The translations under genes and the position numbers were made by a program. Below the pieces are notes generated by a model. The model ran no database searches. It saw nothing but the letters and a program-made list of their open reading frames with translations, and was not told the origin of the DNA. DNA of 17,382 nucleotides from a virus (Duplodnaviria > Heunggongvirae > Uroviricota > Caudoviricetes): IMG/VR virus record IMGVR_UViG_3300029473_000215; one strand, 5' to 3'. The stretch's first letter is position 1. Each line of letters starts with the position of its first letter. Of the stretch, positions 1 to 16,912 are shown piece after piece.

Positions 1-1338
1 ATGCGTCAGAGAGAGCTTGCAGCCACCGCTAAGGCCTTCATGTTGGATAGGCCTGAAGTCTCACTACAGGAGCTTACAGAGCATCTCCGGTCTATGGCTG
101 AGCAGTTCCTGACAGACGCTAGTGACGATTACTGGAATGGACTTGAGGTCGCTACTTTGGTCGACGAGAAGTCCAACCTGAGGGAGCTAGCCGCTACGCA
201 AGCATTGAGTCTGGACCAGCAGAAGGGCATAAGGTTAGCGCTTGAAGTCCTGACCGCAGCACAGCAGAGGGTAGACACTGGTGATACCTCTGGTCTGATT
301 GATATTGTGATGAATAACCCTACGGATTACTCAACTATAGGCGACTCTACGTCAATTCTGAAGAATGAGCAGGGGGGTAGACCAGCAGTTTTCACACAGG
401 AGCGCCAACCTGAGGTCGCTATCTGTAGTTTTTCTGAGCTTGTGTCCTCGCTGCTGGCTGAGAAGGTCCAGACCCTGAAGTCCTCCAGCTACAAGGACCT
501 GTCGTCCTCACTGAATACCGTCTCTCGGTTCTTACCTGAAAACATGGACCTGATGTCCCGCTCTGAGTGGCTGGCTGTCAGGGACTCCATGCTGGCTGCT
601 GAGGTGAGACCATCGACAATCAACAAGCTGCTGACTAAAGCGAAGATGTGTCTTGATTACGGTCTGATGAATGGACAGCTTGAGGGCCGCAACCCTATTG
701 AACGGATGAAGCTGACCAAGGATATCGACTCCAAGCGCAGGGCGTTCACAGACGAGGAGCTGGAGAGACTTCTGGTCCGTGTTGAGTCTGAGTATCAGTT
801 CACACGACACACGGCTCACACGACCTCTGAGGCCCGTAGATGGGCGTCTCTGGTGTCTGTGGTCACTGGCGCTCGGTCTGCTGAGGTCTGCCACCTGACT
901 AAACGTGACATTGTAACCTTGGACAATGGGCTGGTCTGTATCGACATCAATGAAGATGGGGACGGGAAGTCTGTGAAGAACAAACATTCAGTCCGACTTG
1001 TGCCGTTGACCGATGGGGCCTGTGGTCTTGACCTGAAGTCCTTCCTCGAATGGGTAGACATGCAGCCTGACGAGGGTCCTCTCTTCGGGATGACTCCAAG
1101 CGCATACTCTAGCTGGTTTAACTCAAGGGTCATGACTGAAGCTCTGGGAGACGCTACGGATGTCTCTCTCCACAGTCTGAGGCACTGGCTAGCGACCAGA
1201 ATGAAAGAGCGTGGAGTCAATCTGGTGGACGCTCAGGGCATCTTAGGTCACAGCAGTCAGTCCATTACGTATGACCTGTACGGGAAAGGACATGCAGTCC
1301 AGAGACTCGCAGATGCATTGGCTGTGACGTTTGGTTAA
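1..1338 (+). CDS. Tyrosine-type site-specific recombinase (phage integrase family), 445 aa
   Basis: C-terminal catalytic motifs visible in translation: TGARSAEV (box I Arg), HSLRHW (His-x-x-Arg), LGHSSQSITYDLYGKG (conserved His and catalytic Tyr). ATG sits at window position 1, so the true N-terminus could lie upstream. Confidence 0.7.
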   Translation: MRQRELAATAKAFMLDRPEVSLQELTEHLRSMAEQFLTDASDDYWNGLEVATLVDEKSNLRELAATQALSLDQQKGIRLALEVLTAAQQRVDTGDTSGLIDIVMNNPTDYSTIGDSTSILKNEQGGRPAVFTQERQPEVAICSFSELVSSLLAEKVQTLKSSSYKDLSSSLNTVSRFLPENMDLMSRSEWLAVRDSMLAAEVRPSTINKLLTKAKMCLDYGLMNGQLEGRNPIERMKLTKDIDSKRRAFTDEELERLLVRVESEYQFTRHTAHTTSEARRWASLVSVVTGARSAEVCHLTKRDIVTLDNGLVCIDINEDGDGKSVKNKHSVRLVPLTDGACGLDLKSFLEWVDMQPDEGPLFGMTPSAYSSWFNSRVMTEALGDATDVSLHSLRHWLATRMKERGVNLVDAQGILGHSSQSITYDLYGKGHAVQRLADALAVTFG

Positions 1339-2418: not shown

Positions 2419-2504
2419 ATTATTATCTTCTTATGAAGATTAATATAAGACCTATAGTCCAGACTTAAGTCAGACCTCATTCCTTCTATGTGTCTTCCTC
2501 AACC

Positions 2505-2780
2505 ATGGGGTCGACGATAGCTCCGTCAGTCTCCAGCTCAAAGCATCGGGACCCTGTATACATTGGGTCGTTGCTTGGGCTTCCACCTGCTAAGGAGCCG
2601 GGTCAGTGGCGTAGCTCTCTAAAAGACAAGCTCGTTAAAGATGCAATTTTGCATGTTTTAGCAGGACGCTCCGGTGGTTCGACTCCGGGTCGGCATTCAG
2701 ATTGGCAAAGTAGAAGACACCGAGTCGACACAGTACAAGCGTTTTGCTCAGACCAAAGTTGGAAAGCTACTGAGGAATAG
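2505..2780 (+). pseudogene. Partial duplicate of the KilA-N gene 5' region (KilA-N N-terminal motif fragment); may be a remnant or a small paralog
   Basis: Translation ...PPAKEPGQWRSSLKDKLVKDAILHVLAGRSGGSTPG... matches ...PSAKEPGQWRSSVRTLLDQDANLHVAHGGSTPG... of the 3011-3769 protein. Shares an exact 26-nt block (ctgctaaggagccgggtcagtggcgt) and a 17-nt block (ggtggttcgactccggg); no similarity downstream. Confidence 0.3.
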
Positions 2781-3010: not shown

Positions 3011-3769
3011 ATGTCAACTCAACCCTTAATGAAGCATGAAGTAGTTCTTCCGGTCATCGTTGACGGCTATCACTGGGCCTGTAATCAGGACCGTATGTGG
3101 AACCTGAACGAGCTACATAAAGAGCTTGAGCTTCCATCTGCTAAGGAGCCGGGTCAGTGGCGTTCTAGCGTCAGGACGCTTCTTGACCAAGATGCAAATT
3201 TGCATGTTGCTCATGGTGGTTCGACTCCGGGGACATGGGCTACTGAAGAGGCGGCTATTGCCTATGCGATGTGGGTCTCACCTGATTTCTACCTTAAGGT
3301 CATCCGTGCTTTCATCGCTTTACGTAACGACAAAGTGTCGGAAGCTAAGGCGCTGGCGCAGGACTCCAAGGAACTTAAGGGTCTCAAGCCTATAGCCCGT
3401 AACTGGCTGGAAAAGCTGGATAACCCGAAGCAGGGCCACACCCTGACAGAGTGTCTTAAGAATCTCGACTTCAGGTTAGGTACAAAGCTGGTATCAGCCA
3501 AGGCTCTTAATGCCGTATTGAAGTCAGGGCGTATAGCTAATCCCTTCTATAGTCGCAAGCTGGACGGTCGAGGACAGCCTGTATTTGACATCTCATCAGG
3601 TGGCTGGATGACCAGCTTCAATCCTAAGGGTCTGGAGAACGGCTATTACCGTCTTCAGGATAACCACTATAACGGTCAGGAGGGGCTTAAGGTCCTCACC
3701 AAGGGTTACGAGTGGCTTAAGTCCAACAAGGTCGAGCTGGTTCGTCTGTGCGCTAAGGGAGGACTCTAA
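3011..3769 (+). CDS. KilA-N domain protein, 252 aa
   Basis: KilA-N/APSES-like signature ...HGGSTPGTWATEEAAIAYAMWVSPDFYLKVIRAF; SD aaaaggag 10 nt upstream of the ATG. Confidence 0.7.
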   Translation: MSTQPLMKHEVVLPVIVDGYHWACNQDRMWNLNELHKELELPSAKEPGQWRSSVRTLLDQDANLHVAHGGSTPGTWATEEAAIAYAMWVSPDFYLKVIRAFIALRNDKVSEAKALAQDSKELKGLKPIARNWLEKLDNPKQGHTLTECLKNLDFRLGTKLVSAKALNAVLKSGRIANPFYSRKLDGRGQPVFDISSGGWMTSFNPKGLENGYYRLQDNHYNGQEGLKVLTKGYEWLKSNKVELVRLCAKGGL

Positions 3770-4081: not shown

Positions 4082-4573
4082 ATGTTATTCAACAACAACG
4101 ACTGGAAACTGTCAGTCACCGACATCAATCTCTACGAGAATACTGTGAGTCTGGACGGTCAGTCCTATCCGTTGTCGCTCGCTATCAAGACCCTCATTCC
4201 GGGCTACCTGTCCGGCCTGCCAGCCACCAGCCGTGAGTCTATGGAGCTACTGGAAGCTCTGGCTGAAGCTGGCGTGACCATTGGTAACTTCTTCAGTAAT
4301 GACCTGATGACCGCCTACCAACGCCGCCAGATGAATAAGCGTGTCGAGGCTGAGCGTATCGCTAAAGAGCTGGCGTCTCAGAAAGAGCGTACCCGCGAAA
4401 TGTTCATGACCGAAGACGAATGGCAGAAAGAGTTACAACGCCGCGAACAGGTCAAAGCTGAACGCCGGACCTATGGTGAGAACCTCCGCAGCGCTACCCA
4501 TTCCGCTGGTCGTTCCCGTGCCGCTATTGTCGCTGACCTTGAGTCAGGCGGTAACTGGCTGGACAGCCTGTAA
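4082..4573 (+). CDS. Hypothetical protein, 163 aa, with charged, probably helical C-terminal half (scaffold-like is a guess)
   Basis: AGGAG SD upstream of the ATG; C-terminal region rich in E/R/K/Q heptad-like runs (RRQMNKRVEAERIAKELASQKERTREMF...QKELQRREQVKAERR). No family recognised. Confidence 0.6.
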   Translation: MLFNNNDWKLSVTDINLYENTVSLDGQSYPLSLAIKTLIPGYLSGLPATSRESMELLEALAEAGVTIGNFFSNDLMTAYQRRQMNKRVEAERIAKELASQKERTREMFMTEDEWQKELQRREQVKAERRTYGENLRSATHSAGRSRAAIVADLESGGNWLDSL

Positions 4574-4641
4574 GACTCACAAGTGGTCCTGACCTGATGT
4601 CGGGACCCACGTATCTAAACTAATTTAGGAGATTGATTATT

Positions 4642-5628
4642 ATGACTATGACTAAAGACAGCTATCAGTTCGGCATTGAGCCAGTACGTATCACCGACAC
4701 CGACAACATTCAGGTCAATGAAGGTCTGCCGACTAACGCTGACCCACAGGTCTATGCCCTCCAGTTAGCTAAGACGGTTAAGGCTATGCTGAACGGTGTA
4801 CTTAAAGACGCTCAGGATAACATTCCGTTCCCTGTAGAAGTCCTGCCTACCCGCAATAGCCTGCCTACCCCAATCATCGCCCACACTCTGTCTGACCGCT
4901 CTGTGGTCGTCCCTGTACGCGGTGGTGAGCGACCTGAAGTCGTGACCGCTCCGTCTGGTCAGGAGATTGTGGTAGAGCCTATTGAGCAAGCTATCCTTGT
5001 GTCTCACCAGACCAAGCTATGGGACGTCAAGTCTTCCACTGGTTTCACTCAGGGTACGCTCCAGCAGGACGCTATGAACATCTGTGAGAATGTGGTCCGT
5101 ACCATCAACGCTCGCATGGTTGACGTTCTGGAGTCCTCCAAGCTGCTGAAGACTGTAGAGCTGCCAGTCCTGACTGGAAGCCTGACCACTAAGGCAGACG
5201 CTATCATGGACGCTCTGTACGAGAACACCGAGCCTTCCTTTGGTTCTGAGGTTACTGATTACGGTATCATCGCCCATGAGTCACACCTCAAGGCTCTCTC
5301 CCGTCTGGCTGCTAAGCAGGGCTTCGGTGGTGAAGACGCTATCGTGGATATGCTGGGTACCGACATCGCGTATTACAACGGTGAGGACAAAGGTGTGTTC
5401 ATGCTGGCTAAACGCTTCACGGCCCTGAGCTTCGGCTGCTTCCGTCACGACGGTGAGAATATTACGGTCGTCCTTTCACGTGATGGCGACTCTCAGTCCC
5501 ATGACCTTGAGATTCTCGGTAAAGTGTTCGTTGTCGCTGAAGCTGCTACGACCATCAAGATGGGCACTGGCTCAGCTACTGCCGTCCTGCCTGTAGTCAA
5601 ACGCCTGAGTTTCACTAAGACAAGCTAA
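4642..5628 (+). CDS. Hypothetical protein, 328 aa (possibly structural; unrecognised)
   Basis: Long ORF with AGGAG at 4627-4631, 10 nt before ATG 4642 (the ORF track starts at an upstream TTG, 4633); followed by a strong intrinsic terminator. No motif recognised. Confidence 0.65.
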   Translation: MTMTKDSYQFGIEPVRITDTDNIQVNEGLPTNADPQVYALQLAKTVKAMLNGVLKDAQDNIPFPVEVLPTRNSLPTPIIAHTLSDRSVVVPVRGGERPEVVTAPSGQEIVVEPIEQAILVSHQTKLWDVKSSTGFTQGTLQQDAMNICENVVRTINARMVDVLESSKLLKTVELPVLTGSLTTKADAIMDALYENTEPSFGSEVTDYGIIAHESHLKALSRLAAKQGFGGEDAIVDMLGTDIAYYNGEDKGVFMLAKRFTALSFGCFRHDGENITVVLSRDGDSQSHDLEILGKVFVVAEAATTIKMGTGSATAVLPVVKRLSFTKTS

Positions 5629-5647
5629 CTAACAATAACGACTTATT

Positions 5648-5686
5648 GGTCAGACTTCCGTAACTGGATGTCTGGCCTTTATTTTG
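5648..5686 (+). terminator. Rho-independent terminator after the 328-aa gene
   Basis: GGTCAGAC (5648-5655) pairs with GTCTGGCC (5670-5677) with one G-U pair, inner TCC/GGA pairs, followed by TTTATTTTG. Confidence 0.5.
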
Positions 5687-5728
5687 TACTAGTAATCTAG
5701 TTCATGGGTGCGGAAAGAGGAGGACCTA

Positions 5729-5839
5729 ATGGACCTACACAAAGTCTATCTCGTAGTCTTCCTGCTAAAGCTAGCTCTGGTAGTCGTGCTGATGGTCTGG
5801 CCTAAAGTACGATGGTTTCTGACAGAAAAATGTGAATGA
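5729..5839 (+). CDS. Small hydrophobic peptide, 36 aa, predicted single transmembrane helix (below ORF-track cutoff)
   Basis: GAGGAGGA SD (5717-5724) 5 nt before ATG 5729; translation MDLHKVYLVVFLLKLALVVVLMVWPKVRWFLTEKCE; stop TGA at 5837-5839. Confidence 0.4.
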   Translation: MDLHKVYLVVFLLKLALVVVLMVWPKVRWFLTEKCE

Positions 5840-5940
5840 CCATCTAATACATTGAGCCAGCAGACTTCCCCCCATAGTCCCGCCTCAAGTCCTGACCGAG
5901 GCCACCGGGGGGCCTGACCAGCCGTCTAGACATCCCGTCT

Positions 5941-5974
5941 AATGACACAAGTCTGGCACAAAGAATGACACAAG
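5941..5974. repeat. Two exact 11-bp direct repeats (aatgacacaag) at 5941-5951 and 5964-5974, 57-90 bp from the island/chromosome junction
   Basis: Read directly from sequence. Confidence 0.6.
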
Positions 5975-5982
5975 GTCTTGAC

Positions 5983-7440
5983 TCAATGCAGGACCTCAGG
6001 CCTACTAAGGGTCCGCTTCAAGTCCTTGAAGTTCCAGATGAACTTAATGGGCACATCCAGTTTATCTTTGCCCCGGACGCCGTCGCGGATTGCCGTCATT
6101 TTGGGGCCATGATCGATAGCATCTGTCCAGCTGAAGCAGGAAATTGACGTTTTGACCGGATTATCCAGCACCGGCAGGCGCTCTATGGTAATGGTATAGG
6201 TCGATTCACGCGCGCCACTATTTCCGCCGCTGATGCCGACATTGCCCGTCAGAATAGGCAACATAGCAATAGCGCGTGCGGTCAGCTCGCCGTTTGCCTG
6301 GCGTTGTGGCCCCCAGCCCTGGCAGGTATAAGCGGGTTTTGCTGTGCCAATTTCACGCGCCAGTTTGATGATACGGTCCACCGGGATACCGGTAATTTGC
6401 GAAGCCCACTGCGGCGTTTTCGCTGTTTTATCGTCACCTTCACCAAGAATATAGGCTTTATAGTGACCATTTTTGGGTGCATCTGCGGGTAAGGTTTTTT
6501 CGTCATAGCCGACGCAGTATTTATCGAGAAAAGGTTGATCAACGAGATTTTCGTTAATCAATACCCAGGCAATACCCGCAACCAGCGCGGCATCGGTGCC
6601 CGGGCGAATAGGAAGCCATTCATCTTCACGACCAGCAGCCGTATCGGTATATCGCGGATCGATAACAATCATTTTGGCGTTCGATTTCTCGCGCGCTTTT
6701 TCAAGAAGATAAGTGATGCCACCGCCGCTCATGCGGGTTTCTGCCGGGTTGTTACCAAACATCACGACCAGCTTGCTGTTTTCAATATCCGTGGTGCTGT
6801 TGCCATCATTACTGCCGTAGGTGTAGGGCATGGCACAGGAAATTTGCGCAGTGCTGTAGGAGCCATACTGGTTGAGTGAACCGCCGTAGCAGTTCATCAG
6901 GCGTTTGACCGCCGAGGCTGATGGCGAAGAGCGGGTCATATTGCCGCCAACAATCCCCGAAGAGTACTGAATATATACAGCCTCATTGCCATATTGTTCG
7001 ACGGTTTTTTTCAGACTACTGGCGATAGTATCCAGGGCTTCATCCCAGCTAATCCGTTCGAATTTGCCTTCACCGCGTTTACCCACGCGTTTCATTGGGT
7101 AATTCAAGCGATCGGGATGATTAATACGCCGGCGGATGGAGCGACCGCGCAAACAGGCGCGTACTTGATGATTGCCATACTCGTCGTTGCCGGTGTTGTC
7201 AGTTTCCACCCAGATCACTTCATTATCTTTAACATGTAGACGAAGTGCACAGCGGCTACCACAGTTGACGGAACAGGCACCCCAGACCACTTTCTCGCTG
7301 GCCTGTTGTACCGCTGCCGCTGCACTGCGTAGGGTGAACGGTAAAGAAAAACCGCCTGCAGCCAGCGCCAGAGAACCTATCGCGGTAGATTTAACGAGTG
7401 TTCTGCGGCTGATGCCCACCATTCGTTCATTTTTGGACAT
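5983..7440 (-). pseudogene. ynfE: 3'-truncated ynfE (DmsA-family molybdopterin oxidoreductase, Tat-secreted): about 470 native codons plus a 15-codon foreign tail
   Basis: N-terminus MSKNERMVGISRRTLVKSTAIGSLALAAG (twin-arginine signal) and body match E. coli YnfE/DmsA from memory. Homology ends after ...DVPIKFIWN (codon at 6033-6031), then FKDLKRTLSRPEVLH-stop from island DNA. Full-length protein is about 800 aa. Confidence 0.85.
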
Positions 7441-10162: not shown

Positions 10163-10199
10163 GAACATAAATCCATTTTATCAATAAGATAAGAGGAAG

Positions 10200-12801: not shown

Positions 12802-14082
12802 TTAATTTTTCATTGCTTCGTTATGGGGCATGGTTGGGGCAAACTCGCTTAACTGTGTATTTAACAAAGCTACCTGTGCATTATTGTTTTCAGACATCCA
12901 TTTTCCGTATACCTGAAATACCATTTGCGCATCTGCATGGCCCATCTGGTTTGCTATAAATGCCGGGTTAGCACCAGCTGTCAGCGACCAGCAGGCATAA
13001 GTATGTCTCGACTGATATGATTTTCGATGGCGGAGTCCGGCACGTTTTATCGCTGCGTCCCACATCTGCCTTATTGAGTCAACGGTAAAATGGTCACCAT
13101 AATTTTTTACTCCCGCTGACACTTCAGGTTGAAAAACAAAGGTGCATTTTTGTTTTTCTGTTCTGCCATACTCTCTGAGGTGAACATCAATGATATGCTC
13201 TTTGCTCAGTCTCGTTAATGTCATCTGACTCCGGAGAGCGTCGATTGCTGGCTTAATAAGATGAATGACCCGATTGGTTCCCGCCTGTGTTTTTGGTACC
13301 GTGAAACGGTCTTTTGCTAAATTTCTCCTGATCATCATTGTTCCATTTTTCAGATCTATGTCCTCCCATCCAAGTGCACACAGCTCACCAGGGCGAACGC
13401 CAGTATAAACAGAAACACACCATAAATTTTTTGCTTGCTGATTTCTGCACGCATCGATAAGACGGATAAATTCCTCCCGCGAAAGAGGATCCGGAATGGT
13501 TCTTGATTCCTTTAATGGCGAGATCCCCTTAAACGGATTATCTGGCAGGTAACCGTTATCAACACCAAACTGGAACACGGCGTTAAGATTTGTCATGTAA
13601 TTATTTACAGTTACAGCCGATCTTCCTGGTTGTGTAACAATATAGTTACTTTTGGGGATCTGGTATCCAGTCAGTAGCTCTTTACGAACCTCCAGTAATT
13701 TTTCTTTATTAATCGATGAGGCAAGATTTTTTTCACCGATTATGCTCAGGATATTTTTGATGACGGCACGGTATGTGTTGAGTGATGTTTTGGCGACTTC
13801 AGTTTCTTTCAGTGCCAGAAATTTTTCAGCCAGTTCTTTTATGGTTAAATCTTGTCGGGCCTCACCAAATTTTTCCAGATTGCGTGAGGAGGGAAACTGT
13901 TTTGCATAGTCGAAAACACCAGTTTTTATTGCGTAACAAACAGAGGAGCGTAGTTCACCTGCAACGCGCCTGTTTTTTGCTGTGTCAGGAACCCCCAGAT
14001 TTTCCCTGACTCTTACGCCTTTATAGACAAACCAGATACGTAATTTCCCTCCATGGTTTTCCACGCCTGTCGGATATTTCAT
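12802..14082 (-). CDS. Lambdoid phage integrase (tyrosine recombinase with N-terminal arm-binding domain), about 426 aa
   Basis: N-terminus MKYPTGVENHGGKLRIWFVYKGVRVRE resembles Rac IntR-type arm-binding domains; C-terminus carries RHRKSYQSRHTYAC...GHADAQMVFQVYGKW. Start chosen at 14082; an alternative ATG is at 14097. Confidence 0.9.
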   Translation of the reverse strand: MKYPTGVENHGGKLRIWFVYKGVRVRENLGVPDTAKNRRVAGELRSSVCYAIKTGVFDYAKQFPSSRNLEKFGEARQDLTIKELAEKFLALKETEVAKTSLNTYRAVIKNILSIIGEKNLASSINKEKLLEVRKELLTGYQIPKSNYIVTQPGRSAVTVNNYMTNLNAVFQFGVDNGYLPDNPFKGISPLKESRTIPDPLSREEFIRLIDACRNQQAKNLWCVSVYTGVRPGELCALGWEDIDLKNGTMMIRRNLAKDRFTVPKTQAGTNRVIHLIKPAIDALRSQMTLTRLSKEHIIDVHLREYGRTEKQKCTFVFQPEVSAGVKNYGDHFTVDSIRQMWDAAIKRAGLRHRKSYQSRHTYACWSLTAGANPAFIANQMGHADAQMVFQVYGKWMSENNNAQVALLNTQLSEFAPTMPHNEAMKN

Positions 14083-14116
14083 TTCAACTTCTCTCATTAG
14101 TTAGTGTGGCTTTTAG

Positions 14117-14368
14117 TCAAGTAAGATGACGTCTTGGTCTCGCTGATGCCTGGCGCTCAATCCAGCGATCAATTTCTTCCAGGTTGTAAAAGCATGGACT
14201 GTTATCCCATGGCATACCGTCATGAGCGACATGCTTATATTCCCTTCCTTCCATAAACGATTTTTCCCGGGCCTTTTTTAGCGTACCTTTTTTTATTCCT
14301 TTCAGCGCAATTAACTGCTCTTCGGATACCCATTTGCCGGGAGAGACAATCATGATTACTTCGCTCAT
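14117..14368 (-). CDS. Excisionase-like protein, 83 aa
   Basis: Small basic protein immediately upstream of int on the same strand; sequence ...GKWVSEEQLIALKGIKKGTLKKAREKSFMEGREYKHV... resembles the lambdoid prophage excisionase-like family from memory. Confidence 0.65.
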   Translation of the reverse strand: MSEVIMIVSPGKWVSEEQLIALKGIKKGTLKKAREKSFMEGREYKHVAHDGMPWDNSPCFYNLEEIDRWIERQASARPRRHLT

Positions 14369-14397
14369 CGATTTCTTTATCTCTTACATCAGACGAG

Positions 14398-14429
14398 CGC
14401 CGGTTGCAGAATACCAGTCACAACCGGCG
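14398..14429. other. 9-bp perfect inverted repeat with 14-nt spacer between the exo and xis genes
   Basis: cgccggttg (14398-14406) and caaccggcg (14421-14429); no adjacent U-tract on either strand. Confidence 0.3.
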
Positions 14430-14440
14430 ACAGTTGAACA

Positions 14441-16912
14441 TTAAGAATCAGCCTGACTCGGGATCAGTTTTTGCCAGATAACTGAAACGTATTTTGCCTG
14501 GTAACGGGCGTCGTCAAGTGCATTATGGCGCTCACCTTCGAATGGAATAGCCGTTCTGGCATCGAAGTCTATGGCTTTCCCCAGCTCAACGATTGTGCGT
14601 ACATCGCGATCGTTGTAGTAACGCCACGGGCAGGGGATCCCCTGCCGTTCGTATGAACGGCGCAAAATCGTGTTGTCGAAGTTGGCTCCATTTCCCCAAA
14701 CCTGAACAAAAAATTCACCGGAGTTTTCGTCGATAAATTCCCGCAATTGTAACAGTGCATCATCTAACGGGATTTCATCGGTCATAATGGCAGATTGCGC
14801 TTCGCGTGATTGCTTAAGCCACCATTTAATGGTGTCCCGATCAATGACTCCGCCAGCAGTTTCCAGATCGATAGTCTTACTAAATTCCGGTCCCATATCT
14901 CCGGTTTGCGGATCGAAAAATATTGCACCTATTGAGATGATCGGGGCATCAGGATTTTTTCCCATGGTTTCAAGGTCGATCATTAGATGGTCACACGTCC
15001 TGCTGGTGGATGTGATTTCGTGATGACCGTTCACCTTAATTGGGTGATCTGCCGTCTCGCCAGTTTCATTATCGCTATTGTGATGCTGATTGCCGCCAGT
15101 GTTCTCCTTGTGTGGATGTTCAGCGCCTTCCATTTCCTCCGGATCATCTTCCTGAACTTCAACCTGATACTCTTCATCGAATGTTTCTTGGTATGTTGCG
15201 TCGCCCATCACCGCGCCACAATCAGGGCAGTTGCCGCCGCCGGTCTGACCGCAGGCGGTGCAGACTTTTTCCACTTCCTGTTGCGCCACTGGTTCAGGCT
15301 GTTTCGTTTCTGGCTCGTTTTGTAACGCATTTGGACTGTTTTGTTCCGCTTTTTGGTAGTTCCGTTCCGATTCATGCTGGTTCTGGTTCACAGAATCGCG
15401 GGTCTGGATCCCCTTAACCCATTTCGGATCATTCGGGTCACTAATCCCTTCAACAAATTCACCACGTGATGCAGCAAGCAACTTATCGGCGTCAGGCTGG
15501 CTGATATTGGCTGCCTGCATAATTTTGTTTACTTCGTCAGCGGTAACTTTTATCGGCTCTGGTTGTTCTGAATCTTCAGCGGTATCTACATTTTGCGGTA
15601 AGCCCGTGTATGTGCCATTTTTTCGGGCAAAATATTCTTCTTTTGTGATTTCAGTGGCGCCAGCAGCCAGTGCCTTATCCAGACCAGAAAGTTTGTTTGC
15701 GCGACCGTATTTTTCTCCGTCCTTATCTGCGAAGAGGAAATAGAACGGCCCCTCACGCTCTACAGATGGTTCAGCTTCCGGCGCGGTTTCATTTTTTGGG
15801 ATATCAGATACCTCAGTTTCCACTGTATCAGTTTGTGTTTCTGATGACTGGAGAACATCAACAGTGCCCAGGTCTGTTTCTTCATTCTCAAACACGCCCT
15901 TTGTCGTCAGGTATTCGCAGATATATTTGTTCAGTGCTACGGGATCTTTGTGAATGTCGATCGGACGCTCACGGACAAGGCCAAAAATAGTTTGGCGGTC
16001 GTAGCGAAGGGCATCAGGCTGTTTGCGCATTGATGCCGAGATACGCTTCCAGTCTTCGCGGTCGTTGTCGATAACTTCTTTTTTTGCCCAGCGATGGATG
16101 CTGCCGTCAATGTTTCCGGCATCCACATCACCAGGCCAGAGAGCGTAGGCCAGTTCGTCATCCAGTGTTTTCCATGTCTGCTTGTATTCGCGATGAATGG
16201 CAGCAATGACCGGGCTGATTTTTCCTGTTGAATTTTCAGTGTACTGTTGATTGGCTCTGGCGCGGGCGAGATCAACAACAGACGTGTATTTTCCGGTTTC
16301 CTTGCGTTCACCTTCGCGACGTTTTTTCCAGATGCGCATCTCTGCCTGAATTTCGGGCCATTTAGCACCAGGAATACATTTATGCTTAACCCACCCAATG
16401 GCGTGCAACTTAAGCTCCGGATACATGGCGTTAACTTCTGGCATTTTCATCAACGCTTCAACGATATGTCCGTCGAATGTTGCCATGTCTTCCTGCAACA
16501 ATTCCTGTGCGCTAATAACCATATCAACGGTGATGTTTTCACATGTGTCGAACTTAACCATGACAGCGTTCTGTACTTCAGGGGCCAGCTTGTCAAAAGT
16601 GACGTTCATCGGATCGGATTCAGTCTCAACCGGGACAAAAGAAGCAGACTCCTCATCCCAGCGGTTTTCCTGCATATATTCAGCATCCCATGAATCGAGG
16701 GCAGGGCGGGGTATGCCAGGTTTATCCTCGCAGACAATAAATTTATAAGCGCAGTCCTGAGCAGCCGGATAATGTTCCAGGAATTGCCAGTGAAATTTTG
16801 CTCGAGCACGGCGTTCGTCGCCAGCTTCAATGGCTGTGGCTACAGCCACAGCGCCTTCTTCCCTTGTTGCCAGTTCGTCAGGAATAGCGGCGCAAATAAA
16901 GACTTTACTCAT
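14441..16912 (-). CDS. Exodeoxyribonuclease VIII-like protein with C-terminal DnaQ-like (DEDDh) 3'-5' exonuclease domain, 823 aa
   Basis: Central segment KLLAASRGEFVEGISDPNDPKWVKGIQTRD and Cys4 cluster CTACGQTGGGNCPDCGAVMGDATYQETF match RecE from memory; C-terminus has DEDDh motifs MIDLETMG, WGNGANFDNTIL and HNALDDARYQ instead of the RecE PD-(D/E)xK nuclease; GAGG SD upstream of the ATG. Confidence 0.85.
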   Translation of the reverse strand: MSKVFICAAIPDELATREEGAVAVATAIEAGDERRARAKFHWQFLEHYPAAQDCAYKFIVCEDKPGIPRPALDSWDAEYMQENRWDEESASFVPVETESDPMNVTFDKLAPEVQNAVMVKFDTCENITVDMVISAQELLQEDMATFDGHIVEALMKMPEVNAMYPELKLHAIGWVKHKCIPGAKWPEIQAEMRIWKKRREGERKETGKYTSVVDLARARANQQYTENSTGKISPVIAAIHREYKQTWKTLDDELAYALWPGDVDAGNIDGSIHRWAKKEVIDNDREDWKRISASMRKQPDALRYDRQTIFGLVRERPIDIHKDPVALNKYICEYLTTKGVFENEETDLGTVDVLQSSETQTDTVETEVSDIPKNETAPEAEPSVEREGPFYFLFADKDGEKYGRANKLSGLDKALAAGATEITKEEYFARKNGTYTGLPQNVDTAEDSEQPEPIKVTADEVNKIMQAANISQPDADKLLAASRGEFVEGISDPNDPKWVKGIQTRDSVNQNQHESERNYQKAEQNSPNALQNEPETKQPEPVAQQEVEKVCTACGQTGGGNCPDCGAVMGDATYQETFDEEYQVEVQEDDPEEMEGAEHPHKENTGGNQHHNSDNETGETADHPIKVNGHHEITSTSRTCDHLMIDLETMGKNPDAPIISIGAIFFDPQTGDMGPEFSKTIDLETAGGVIDRDTIKWWLKQSREAQSAIMTDEIPLDDALLQLREFIDENSGEFFVQVWGNGANFDNTILRRSYERQGIPCPWRYYNDRDVRTIVELGKAIDFDARTAIPFEGERHNALDDARYQAKYVSVIWQKLIPSQADS

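Follow-up and report, generated by a model that had tools for sequence, protein, structure and literature searches.

Does the short open reading frame (ORF) at positions 5729 to 5839 (plus strand) of the IMG/VR record IMGVR_UViG_3300029473_000215 encode a protein, and if so, what would such a small product be doing at the end of an integrated element? The window, that is, the whole stretch of 17,382 nucleotides (nt) analysed here, is filed as a virus of the Caudoviricetes. It is a piece of Escherichia chromosome in which a small island interrupts the gene ynfE, and the small ORF is found at the right end of this island. An initial annotation, made from the sequence by eye, had described the ORF as encoding a 36-amino-acid (aa) single-helix membrane peptide similar to type I toxins of the Hok/Ldr/TisB class, small holins or phage membrane effectors. 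Our analyses indicate that the small ORF is very probably a genuine protein-coding gene specifying a single-pass membrane-type peptide of 26 to 36 aa. The peptide represents a new, unannotated family without curated relatives, among the small membrane peptides of mobile elements, and of the descriptions initially offered, "phage membrane effector" remains the best.

The translation of the small ORF, MDLHKVYLVVFLLKLALVVVLMVWPKVRWFLTEKCE, starts at an ATG preceded by the AGGAGG-type Shine-Dalgarno (SD) sequence GAGGAGGA (5717 to 5724, plus strand). The gap of 5 nt between its GGAGG core and the start codon is as first annotated, and the same spacing is kept across otherwise unrelated leaders. 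The hydrophobic core previously noted in the peptide was also confirmed, at residues 6 to 24, with a Kyte-Doolittle mean of 2.77 over these 19 residues and Lys14 interrupting the stretch. Hydrophobicity of this degree is reached by only two of the 154 ORFs of 24 to 60 aa in the window, and among the island proteins the peptide is the sole membrane-type product. Its charge distribution predicts a topology with the N-terminus out and the C-terminus in. The ORF starts 100 nt past a co-oriented gene encoding a 331-aa capsid-like protein and 43 nt past the terminator of that gene; no second (tandem) copy of it was found in the window.

In-frame conservation in related elements had been set as the check on the small ORF, and the ORF passed it in all islands fetched. 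Together with an AGGAGG sequence, it is kept in all the related islands examined, from E. coli, Shigella, Citrobacter, Leclercia, Buttiauxella, Rouxiella and metagenomes (individual loci are given L numbers below). The version present in the window, type A, is open in 23/23 loci representing 19 distinct nucleotide sequences, with an AGGAGG-type SD, and its N-terminus is MDLHKVYL in all loci but one (GTG-SLHQVYL). The family motif can be written M-D-L-H-K-V-Y-L-x-V-[FL]-L-[LI]-K-[LM], after which come a stretch of hydrophobic residues and a short tail that is basic in most cases, the C-terminal flank of most type A peptides having a net charge of +1 or +2. Over codons 1 to 22, the ratio of nonsynonymous to synonymous polymorphism (pN/pS) is 0.31 in the frame of the small ORF, the lowest of the six frames, versus 0.95 and 1.77 in the other plus-strand frames and 0.37 in the minus-strand mirror frame; variable sites number 9, 6 and 14 at codon positions 1, 2 and 3, respectively. 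An alternative 33-aa ORF in the +3 frame (MGAERGG...) was ruled out as coding by its pN/pS of 1.77. Residue exchanges are hydrophobic for hydrophobic, as in MDLHKVYLAVLLIKMALMVMLVVLRR of L025 to L027, and the Rouxiella peptide, although divergent (MDFMSLHDAYLLSVFLMALVRLLGGQ), retains its ORF, SD and hydrophobic character. In divergent islands BLAST nucleotide homology sets in precisely at the ATG (query position 101), and the leader before the small ORF has been swapped for at least three unrelated sequences, each carrying its own AGGAGG SD. The rarity of such hydrophobic ORFs in the window, the in-frame conservation and the low pN/pS thus conjointly make the small ORF more than a chance occurrence.

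While the 36-aa translation is right for the window, the conserved unit is shorter, at about 26 to 28 aa, the core comprising codons 1 to 28 (5729 to 5812). Residues 29 to 36 (WFLTEKCE) are the product of a 1-nt indel and constitute a lineage-specific frameshift extension; in most islands the same DNA (…TTGACTGAAAAATGTGAGA…) lies past the stop codon, giving "LTEKCE" in another frame. At least three variants are extended, namely the 36-aa form of the window and those of L004 and L006. Type A C-termini vary overall, with RR, VR, VRY, KD, KDWY, KG and VRM endings as well as the 36-aa form and a 70-aa read-through. Since the frameshifted tail comes from a noncoding block and the C-termini are free to vary, the functional peptide would be the unit of about 26 to 28 aa.

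The noncoding block in question (CTGACAGAAAAATGTGA...CCATCTAATA...CCCCCCATAG, 5810 to 5880) lies between the peptide core and the right attachment site (attR), overlapping the last 10 codons of the ORF in the window. It is conserved at the DNA level in whatever reading frame, is still recognisable where the capsid-like protein is only 25 to 32% identical, and marks a recombination breakpoint at BLAST query position 182 (window position 5810) in many E. coli genomes. An ORF that adjoins and overlaps so strongly conserved a noncoding block, in a region that folds into a hairpin, might be taken as a by-product of DNA or RNA signals (for instance a packaging site, an RNA structure or arm sites for the integrase) and have no function as a protein. 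We consider this extremely improbable, given that substitutions cluster at third codon positions, that the pN/pS of 0.31 is found only in this frame (and nearly so in its mirror), and that remote islands keep the hydrophobicity, the SD and the ORF while the nucleotide sequence changes.

The position of the small ORF is itself a conserved feature, occupied by more than one kind of sequence. A 51-aa peptide, type B (MSMTSADLKSLLTLVYKLVFLSVGLYMVLSGRLGVDVFDTLSKAVGGLLGP), takes this position in islands of E. coli LH13-b, Leclercia, Shigella and Citrobacter, and also in an island with a capsid identity of only 42%. An unrelated 30-aa peptide, type C (MSCLFIIWLSLWVVDHLLLLGLQVFYTTKI), is found directly before the conserved block in an island at 32% capsid identity, and the islands at 28% and 25% identity have slot peptides of 28 aa (MFTLLDTVSFRDLLMFLSLVLWSLDKLA) and 27 aa (MDTLNAAYWVCVAVHVAFWLYGHFKDS). 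These other small hydrophobic ORFs of the same slot lie at 10183 to 10338 in L002, 10176 to 10268 in L034, 8255 to 8341 in L036 and 9136 to 9219 in L037, with further cases in L012, L013, L021 and L032/L033. All versions have one hydrophobic stretch of 17 to 19 residues and a neutral or acidic N-terminal flank, and within the stretch there is usually a single charged or polar residue, which is Lys14 in type A, His in L037, Arg in Rouxiella and Asp/His in type C. In all islands examined, the gene string ends with the small ORF. In L037, the island at 25% identity, a Rha gene stands between the capsid-like gene and the small ORF, which is still the last gene before the attachment-arm block; the constant feature is therefore that of a last gene directly upstream of this block. 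As a separate observation, types A and B have a VYxLVFL-like motif in common, so that a distant relation between them may exist.

The small ORF is without annotation in every RefSeq record examined, none of the nine clusters of the peptide in a collection of 5.8 billion proteins bears a functional name, and a literature search did not find its sequence in any paper. Six variants of the peptide compared with Pfam and NCBIfam at an E value of ≤10 gave no match except two sub-threshold ones to domains of unknown function (DUF), of 12 to 14 bits, and PHROG and PADLOC likewise gave none. Annotation routinely overlooks small membrane peptides, and the island of this one is present in about 6% of complete E. 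coli genomes: related islands were found in 312/5426 of them, including Shiga-toxin-producing strains.

How the gene is expressed bears directly on what its product might do. The terminator initially placed just upstream of the small ORF does exist as a structure: a hairpin at 5648 to 5677 (-24.2 kcal/mol, z = -5.3, with 0/200 shuffled sequences as stable) is followed by the U-tract UUUAUUUU at 5678 to 5685, together forming an intrinsic terminator or attenuator after the capsid-like gene (5648 to 5685, plus strand). A consensus terminator scan missed it because of a stem mismatch around the 6-nt loop. A hairpin and T-run follow the capsid-like gene in all islands, with differing stem sequences. 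The promoter that the small ORF had been supposed to possess was, however, not borne out. In the window, a consensus scan of 5400 to 6100 detected no sigma-70-like promoter between hairpin and SD, and a lenient scan of both strands in 16 islands revealed none conserved either upstream of or antisense to the small ORF; its only candidate was weak, outward-facing, on the plus strand and downstream of the ORF. Moreover, the spacer between hairpin and SD is replaced by unrelated sequences across islands, and in L034 the terminator reaches directly to the SD of the ORF that follows and hence leaves no room for a promoter. We infer from these data that the small ORF lacks a promoter of its own and is expressed by read-through of the terminator.

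Two side observations concern the same spacer. A perfect DnaA-box-like 9-mer, TTATCCACA, lies between hairpin and SD in L009 to L011, about 40 to 50 nt upstream of the small ORF (positions ~1450 to 1460). In addition, palindromes or repeats of a GTTAT motif are frequent in the spacer (ACTAGTAATCTAGT in the window at 5689 to 5702, ATGTTATAACAT in L032/L034 and TGTTATGTTATA in L025, among the leaders of L008/L016, L009, L025, L032, L034 and the window) and could be an operator or processing site whose sequence differs among islands.

A second level of control is predicted at translation. In a predicted hairpin at 5718 to 5763 (plus strand), AGGAGGAC (5718 to 5725) pairs with GUCUUCCU (5756 to 5763, codons 10 to 12) and AUGGAC (5729 to 5734) pairs with GUCUAU (5744 to 5749, codons 6 and 7), burying both the SD and the start codon. 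This is the predicted minimum-energy fold in all type A variants, and some changes look compensatory (GGACC:GGUCU versus GGACG:CGUCU, where the Val codon is changed synonymously, and in L025 a pair that has been matched again). Burial of the SD, the start codon or both is also predicted for types B and C and for the remote versions. The probability of the SD being paired is 0.99 compared to ~0.7 in synonymous-codon or ORF-shuffled controls. The hairpin is thus plausible and consistent across variants, with modest support from these folding predictions. Overall, we lean slightly towards a scheme in which the gene has no promoter of its own, is transcribed by read-through and has its translation limited by sequestration of the SD and AUG.

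If so, read-through of the terminator after the capsid-like gene would place the small ORF on a fraction of late transcripts, and the strong SD, throttled by the hairpin over SD and AUG, would keep the dose of peptide small and late. The peptide would then insert in the inner membrane and perturb it, the conserved charged residue within the helix perhaps promoting oligomerisation or pore formation, and the effect would be to set or advance the timing of host permeabilisation or lysis upon induction of the element. Our preferred reading, held tentatively and by analogy, is accordingly that of a late, low-dose membrane-active effector of membrane integrity or lysis timing, similar to LidI or to a minimal holin or single-gene lysis factor, and not a post-segregational killing toxin. 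It is suggested by the nonhomologous peptides that occupy the slot, the double brake on expression and the lack of any other membrane or lysis gene on the island. If correct, the peptide would provide a minimal model of how tiny satellite-like elements leave or manipulate their host.

LidI, from the Vibrio cholerae satellite PLE (phage-inducible chromosomal island-like element), was likewise a previously unannotated small ORF, recognised by synteny, and has transmembrane domains without homology to known domains; the tagged protein was undetectable unless there was phage infection, and lidI alone was enough to speed lysis (Hays & Seed 2020, PMC7182436). The small ORF described here shares with it the lack of annotation, the conserved synteny, the condition of only membrane-type product and an apparently low expression. 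The two differ in size, LidI being 66 or 121 aa long compared to 26 to 36 aa for our peptide (51 aa in type B), and judging by these sizes, homology between them is unlikely. The elements also differ: PLE, a satellite of ~18 kb, steals the capsid of its helper, whereas the ~7-kb element analysed here has a capsid-like gene of its own.

The predicted burial of SD and AUG is equally what the initially proposed kinship with type I toxins would lead one to expect. According to this alternative, the gene would be transcribed constitutively, silenced by an antisense or trans-acting small RNA that went undetected, and the peptide would kill cells that lose the island. The criteria for such toxins comprise fewer than 70 aa, a predicted transmembrane region and a tail of polar or aromatic character (Fozo et al. 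2010, PMC2887945). With 26 to 36 aa and hydrophobic residues 6 to 24, the peptide has the size and the membrane region, and its single helix with internal charge also fits; its tails (RR, PKVR, PKD, PKDWY and VRM) are polar, basic or aromatic, but their length and sequence vary freely, including the frameshift extensions. It resembles in these respects the 19- to 50-aa class of TisB, DinQ, ZorO, ShoB, Ibs, Ldr and Hok, which have a single helix with a charged residue, a short polar tail and an mRNA predicted to hide the ribosome-binding site. In the mRNAs of tisB, dinQ, zorO and hok, the SD or AUG is buried in a hairpin, as predicted for our ORF. The location at the edge of a mobile element is also in keeping with an addiction toxin, which, if confirmed, would explain the persistence of the island despite the inactivation of ynfE.

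The case for membership of the Hok/Ldr/TisB class nevertheless did not hold on closer inspection. No known toxin family was matched, even at an E value of ≤10, and we found neither tandem copies in the window nor a conserved promoter, on either strand, for the mRNA or for an antisense RNA. As first noted by eye, no antisense RNA is evident: the window has no minus-strand sigma-70-like promoter, minus-strand folding gives a z of ~0 across the ORF, and Rfam returned from 5400 to 6100 only a spurious microRNA match (E = 0.45). Rather than an isolated locus with an independent promoter, as is typical of type I toxins, the small ORF is operon-terminal on a mobile element, 100 nt behind a co-oriented capsid-like gene, and its leader of ~40 nt is wholly different between islands, which is hard to square with a long conserved regulatory 5′ untranslated region. 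We therefore regard an addiction toxin as unlikely.

A holin or single-gene lysis protein, the second class named at the outset, has in its favour a small membrane protein ending a string of structural genes, with one transmembrane-type helix and a charged C-terminus (+1 or +2 in the C-terminal flank of type A). Unrelated sequences of like biophysical character in one slot, as observed here, are typical of holins. The identification as a small holin finds no support, however, in the rest of the island, which has no endolysin or spanin; no holin profile in Pfam or PHROG was matched by the peptide, no muralytic or spanin family was found among the island proteins, and the ORF lacks a dual-start motif.

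The same anatomy would also suit a nonlethal membrane protein that binds a partner, acting in superinfection exclusion or as an entry block that shields the carrier cell or the element from competing phages, or as a modulator of a host membrane protein in the manner of AcrZ, MgtS, MgtR or KdpF. Many bacterial single-helix small proteins are regulators and not toxins. A conserved polar or charged residue in the helix is typical of helix-helix recognition, the invariant MDLHKVYL suggests a specific contact surface over generic hydrophobicity, and the variable cargo by the integrase (HNH, DUF4145) suggests that the islands take part in phage conflicts. The nonhomologous replacement by types B and C is, on the other hand, easier to understand via a generic membrane activity, a terminator combined with SD sequestration would be unusual for a harmless protein needed in the lysogen to exclude phages, and no partner is evident. 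On balance, we see a partner-binding function as possible but rather unlikely.

Several considerations weigh against the late-effector reading that we prefer. The function proposed is read from the anatomy of the locus. The missing endolysin and spanin count here as well, and to our knowledge the smallest holins are about twice the size of the peptide, with 26 to 36 aa below that of any known holin. Both the "late operon" and the "induced cycle" are assumptions, as the element is known here from its genes, and the capsid-like protein is also encapsulin-like in its fold, so that the element may not make virions. Regarding the translational brake, controls pair the SD with a probability of ~0.7 to 0.9, and the native sequences rank in the top 0.3 to 35% depending on the island, surpassing the controls in some islands only, so that the signal is statistically weak. 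Finally, in L008 the small ORF is intact although the capsid-like gene is disrupted by an insertion sequence, a situation that an addiction toxin fits at least as well as a late gene.

The study of the small ORF led to the recognition of the capsid-like gene that precedes it (4633 to 5628, plus strand). The 331-aa length of the product is counted from the TTG start of the program-made ORF list, its RefSeq homologues having 328 to 329 aa. No match to it was found in Pfam, PHROG, PADLOC, NCBIfam or PDB sequences. An exhaustive profile search recovered 63 representatives, including full-length relatives at 20 to 40% identity; one relative carries a Big_2 immunoglobulin-like domain. The remote relatives were needed for structure prediction: a model from 13 close homologues had a predicted local distance difference test score (pLDDT) of 36 and was not used, while the AlphaFold model from a 37-sequence alignment reached a pLDDT of 83 and a predicted TM-score (pTM) of 0.79. 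Foldseek returned 207 matches to the latter in PDB at an E value of ≤1e-3, the 50 listed being all phage capsid proteins or encapsulins, with the capsid proteins of phi29, T5, T7-like Kp9, PhiM1 and HRP29 among the matches. In BFVD there were 189 matches at the same threshold, those with names among the 50 listed being mostly capsid or head proteins. TM-scores against the matches are only 0.3 to 0.47. The N-terminal helix, long beta-hairpin and long helix of the model can be read as the N-arm, E-loop and spine helix. As modelled, the 331-aa protein has the HK97 capsid/encapsulin fold, undetected by sequence libraries, which would make the island a minimal capsid-encoding, satellite-like integrative element.

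An HK97-type shell next door raises the alternative that the peptide takes part in the particle, as a membrane anchor, as an exit or entry factor of the shell or as a small virion component. It shares the end of the gene string with the capsid-like protein and its ~160-aa partner, and its charge layout (acidic N-terminus, hydrophobic core, basic C-terminus) is like that of a filamentous phage coat. Small inserted coat proteins have a similar layout. With no portal, terminase or tail genes on the island, unconventional packaging or exit is also conceivable. A structural part would, however, be needed in capsid-like amounts, at odds with the strong terminator and sequestered SD; in L037 a regulator gene separates the small ORF from the capsid-like gene; and we know of no precedent among HK97-fold systems. 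A role in the particle or its assembly is accordingly very unlikely. The specific idea of an inovirus coat protein, prompted by small hydrophobic peptides in an element of ~7 kb, was dropped on discovery of the HK97 fold, and the island has neither a Zot-type nor a replication initiator domain.

The island is an uncharacterised, unusually minimal capsid-encoding element. Phage-inducible chromosomal islands of the capsid-forming kind (cf-PICIs) are similar in being integrative, phage-related and equipped with an HK97-fold capsid protein of their own, and they also encode other proteins to make and fill their own small capsids. The element described here falls outside the definition of cf-PICIs, the corresponding families being absent from the island ORFs; ~7 kb leaves no room for them. 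The cf-PICI set comprises a portal, a protease, head-tail connectors and a small terminase. Similar in content are the small HK97 "mini viral entities" of the gut, which average 8.9 kb and have a major capsid protein, a scaffold, an integrase and regulators, with no portal, terminase or tail (bioRxiv 10.1101/2025.06.18.659913). They carry RepA or helicase genes, whereas no replication gene was recognised here, and the likeness is conceptual. It is doubtful, in our judgment distinctly so, that the ynfE and tRNA-Gly islands form a new class of minimal capsid-encoding elements comprising an integrase, a regulator, a DUF6971-type partner and an HK97 shell protein, with a 26-aa peptide as the sole exit or lysis-timing factor. 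Should this prove true, the peptide would be the smallest lysis-type effector known for a double-stranded-DNA element, and E. coli would offer a genetically tractable system in which to study the HK97 mini viral entities without tails, so far only metagenomic.

The gene order of the islands, all on one strand, is integrase, variable cargo, a KilA-N/Rha/Bro gene, the ~160-aa gene, the ~330-aa capsid-like gene, the small ORF and the attachment site attP. In the window, the tyrosine integrase (1 to 1338, plus strand), its N-terminus cut by the window start, matches Pfam Phage_integrase and phrog_1 and corresponds to proteins annotated as site-specific integrases in related islands. It is followed by an HNH endonuclease in the cargo slot (1488 to 2222), a KilA-N domain protein in the regulator slot (3011 to 3769, plus strand), where other islands have Rha or Bro-N proteins, and the gene for a 163-aa protein (4082 to 4573, plus strand) that is always directly upstream of the capsid-like gene. 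The 163-aa protein had no usable match in Pfam, PHROGs, PADLOC, NCBIfam or PDB sequences; its counterparts of ~160 aa in the remote islands L036 and L037 match DUF6971, and its position, its size and the charge of its C-terminal half make it a possible scaffold. Pfam and PHROG scans of the island ORFs detected no portal, terminase, tail, protease or lysis families; a replication gene was not recognised on the island either.

A 15-bp direct repeat, AGTTCCAGATGAACT, lies on either side of complete islands. Its single exact match in the window, at 6030 to 6044 (plus strand), is the attR core that defines the right boundary in ynfE and bears out the initial placement of the small ORF near the island end. 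Two direct repeats, AATGACACAAG, at 5941 to 5951 and 5964 to 5974 (plus strand), are candidate arm-type integrase binding sites. The conserved block at 5810 to 5880 also contains, on the plus strand, a -35-like TTGACW followed 18 nt later by TCTAAT, elements that would face attP and the integrase gene once the element is excised as a circle; as judged from its sequence, the block could comprise a packaging site, arm-type sites for the integrase or an integrase promoter specific to the circle.

Beyond the island, the ynfE remnant starts at 5983 on the minus strand and is followed by ynfD, ynfC, speG, ynfB, ynfA and rspAB and then by the integrase of a lambdoid prophage. The gene ynfE has been listed as an interrupted target in the TIGER paper (PMC7192596). 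Sister islands occupy the 3′ end of a tRNA-Gly gene beside the ETT2 (second type III secretion system of E. coli) region, and remoter relatives are at other sites, one of them apparently nadB. The element family, of roughly 6 to 8 kb (~7 kb for the present type), belongs to the Enterobacterales, with related islands also found in Shigella, Citrobacter, Leclercia, Buttiauxella and Rouxiella. A phage origin of the region was rejected, as neither megablast of 4600 to 6000 nor tblastn of the 331-aa, 163-aa and type B proteins gave any match in 50,697 phage records. The small ORF occurs on two IMG/VR "viral" contigs, L030 and L031; the one examined, L030, is the same chromosomal ynf region, which provides no evidence for packaging. 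The sole plasmid match is the same tRNA-Gly island (L039, NZ_CP126871.1, Enterobacter hormaechei pEh5_2). In that 58.7-kb record, labelled as a non-mobilizable plasmid, the island is accompanied by flanking chromosomal genes such as actS, and it may be a captured chromosomal segment or reflect an assembly or labelling issue.

Additional features of the islands were noted. The cargo after the integrase differs among the window, L003, L005, L023, L025, L036 and other islands, with HNH in the window, DUF4145 proteins elsewhere and small hypothetical proteins in L004, and the slot is reminiscent of the hotspots for variable or defence genes in other satellites. A 96-aa ORF of the window (2490 to 2780), in the gap that separates the HNH gene from the KilA-N gene, contains …LPPAKEPGQWRSSLKDKLVKDAILHVLAGRSGGSTPG…, close to residues ~40 to 75 of the KilA-N protein, and by this similarity appears to be what is left of a second or ancestral KilA-N gene. 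Right after the capsid-like gene, L012 (8005 to 8244), L013 (8005 to 8244) and L021 (511 to 750) have an extra 79-aa Gly/Pro-rich ORF (MGKSISKGFRSIAKGLTGGGG…SGLNISRTSGGGLSL), of which only a C-terminal remnant is present in L007 and L009 to L011; it might be a capsid extension or decoration. The island splits ynfE, which encodes a selenate/dimethyl sulfoxide-type reductase subunit (5983 to 7440, minus strand), such that the retained 5′ part and promoter point into the island. Host transcription could thus run antisense across the attachment arm and small ORF in islands of the ynfE type, and not in those of the tRNA-Gly type. Finally, the end of a separate lambdoid prophage past rspB (12802 to 16912, minus strand), with a tyrosine integrase (12802 to 14097), an excisionase (14117 to 14368) and an exonuclease (14441 to 16912), could be a candidate helper.

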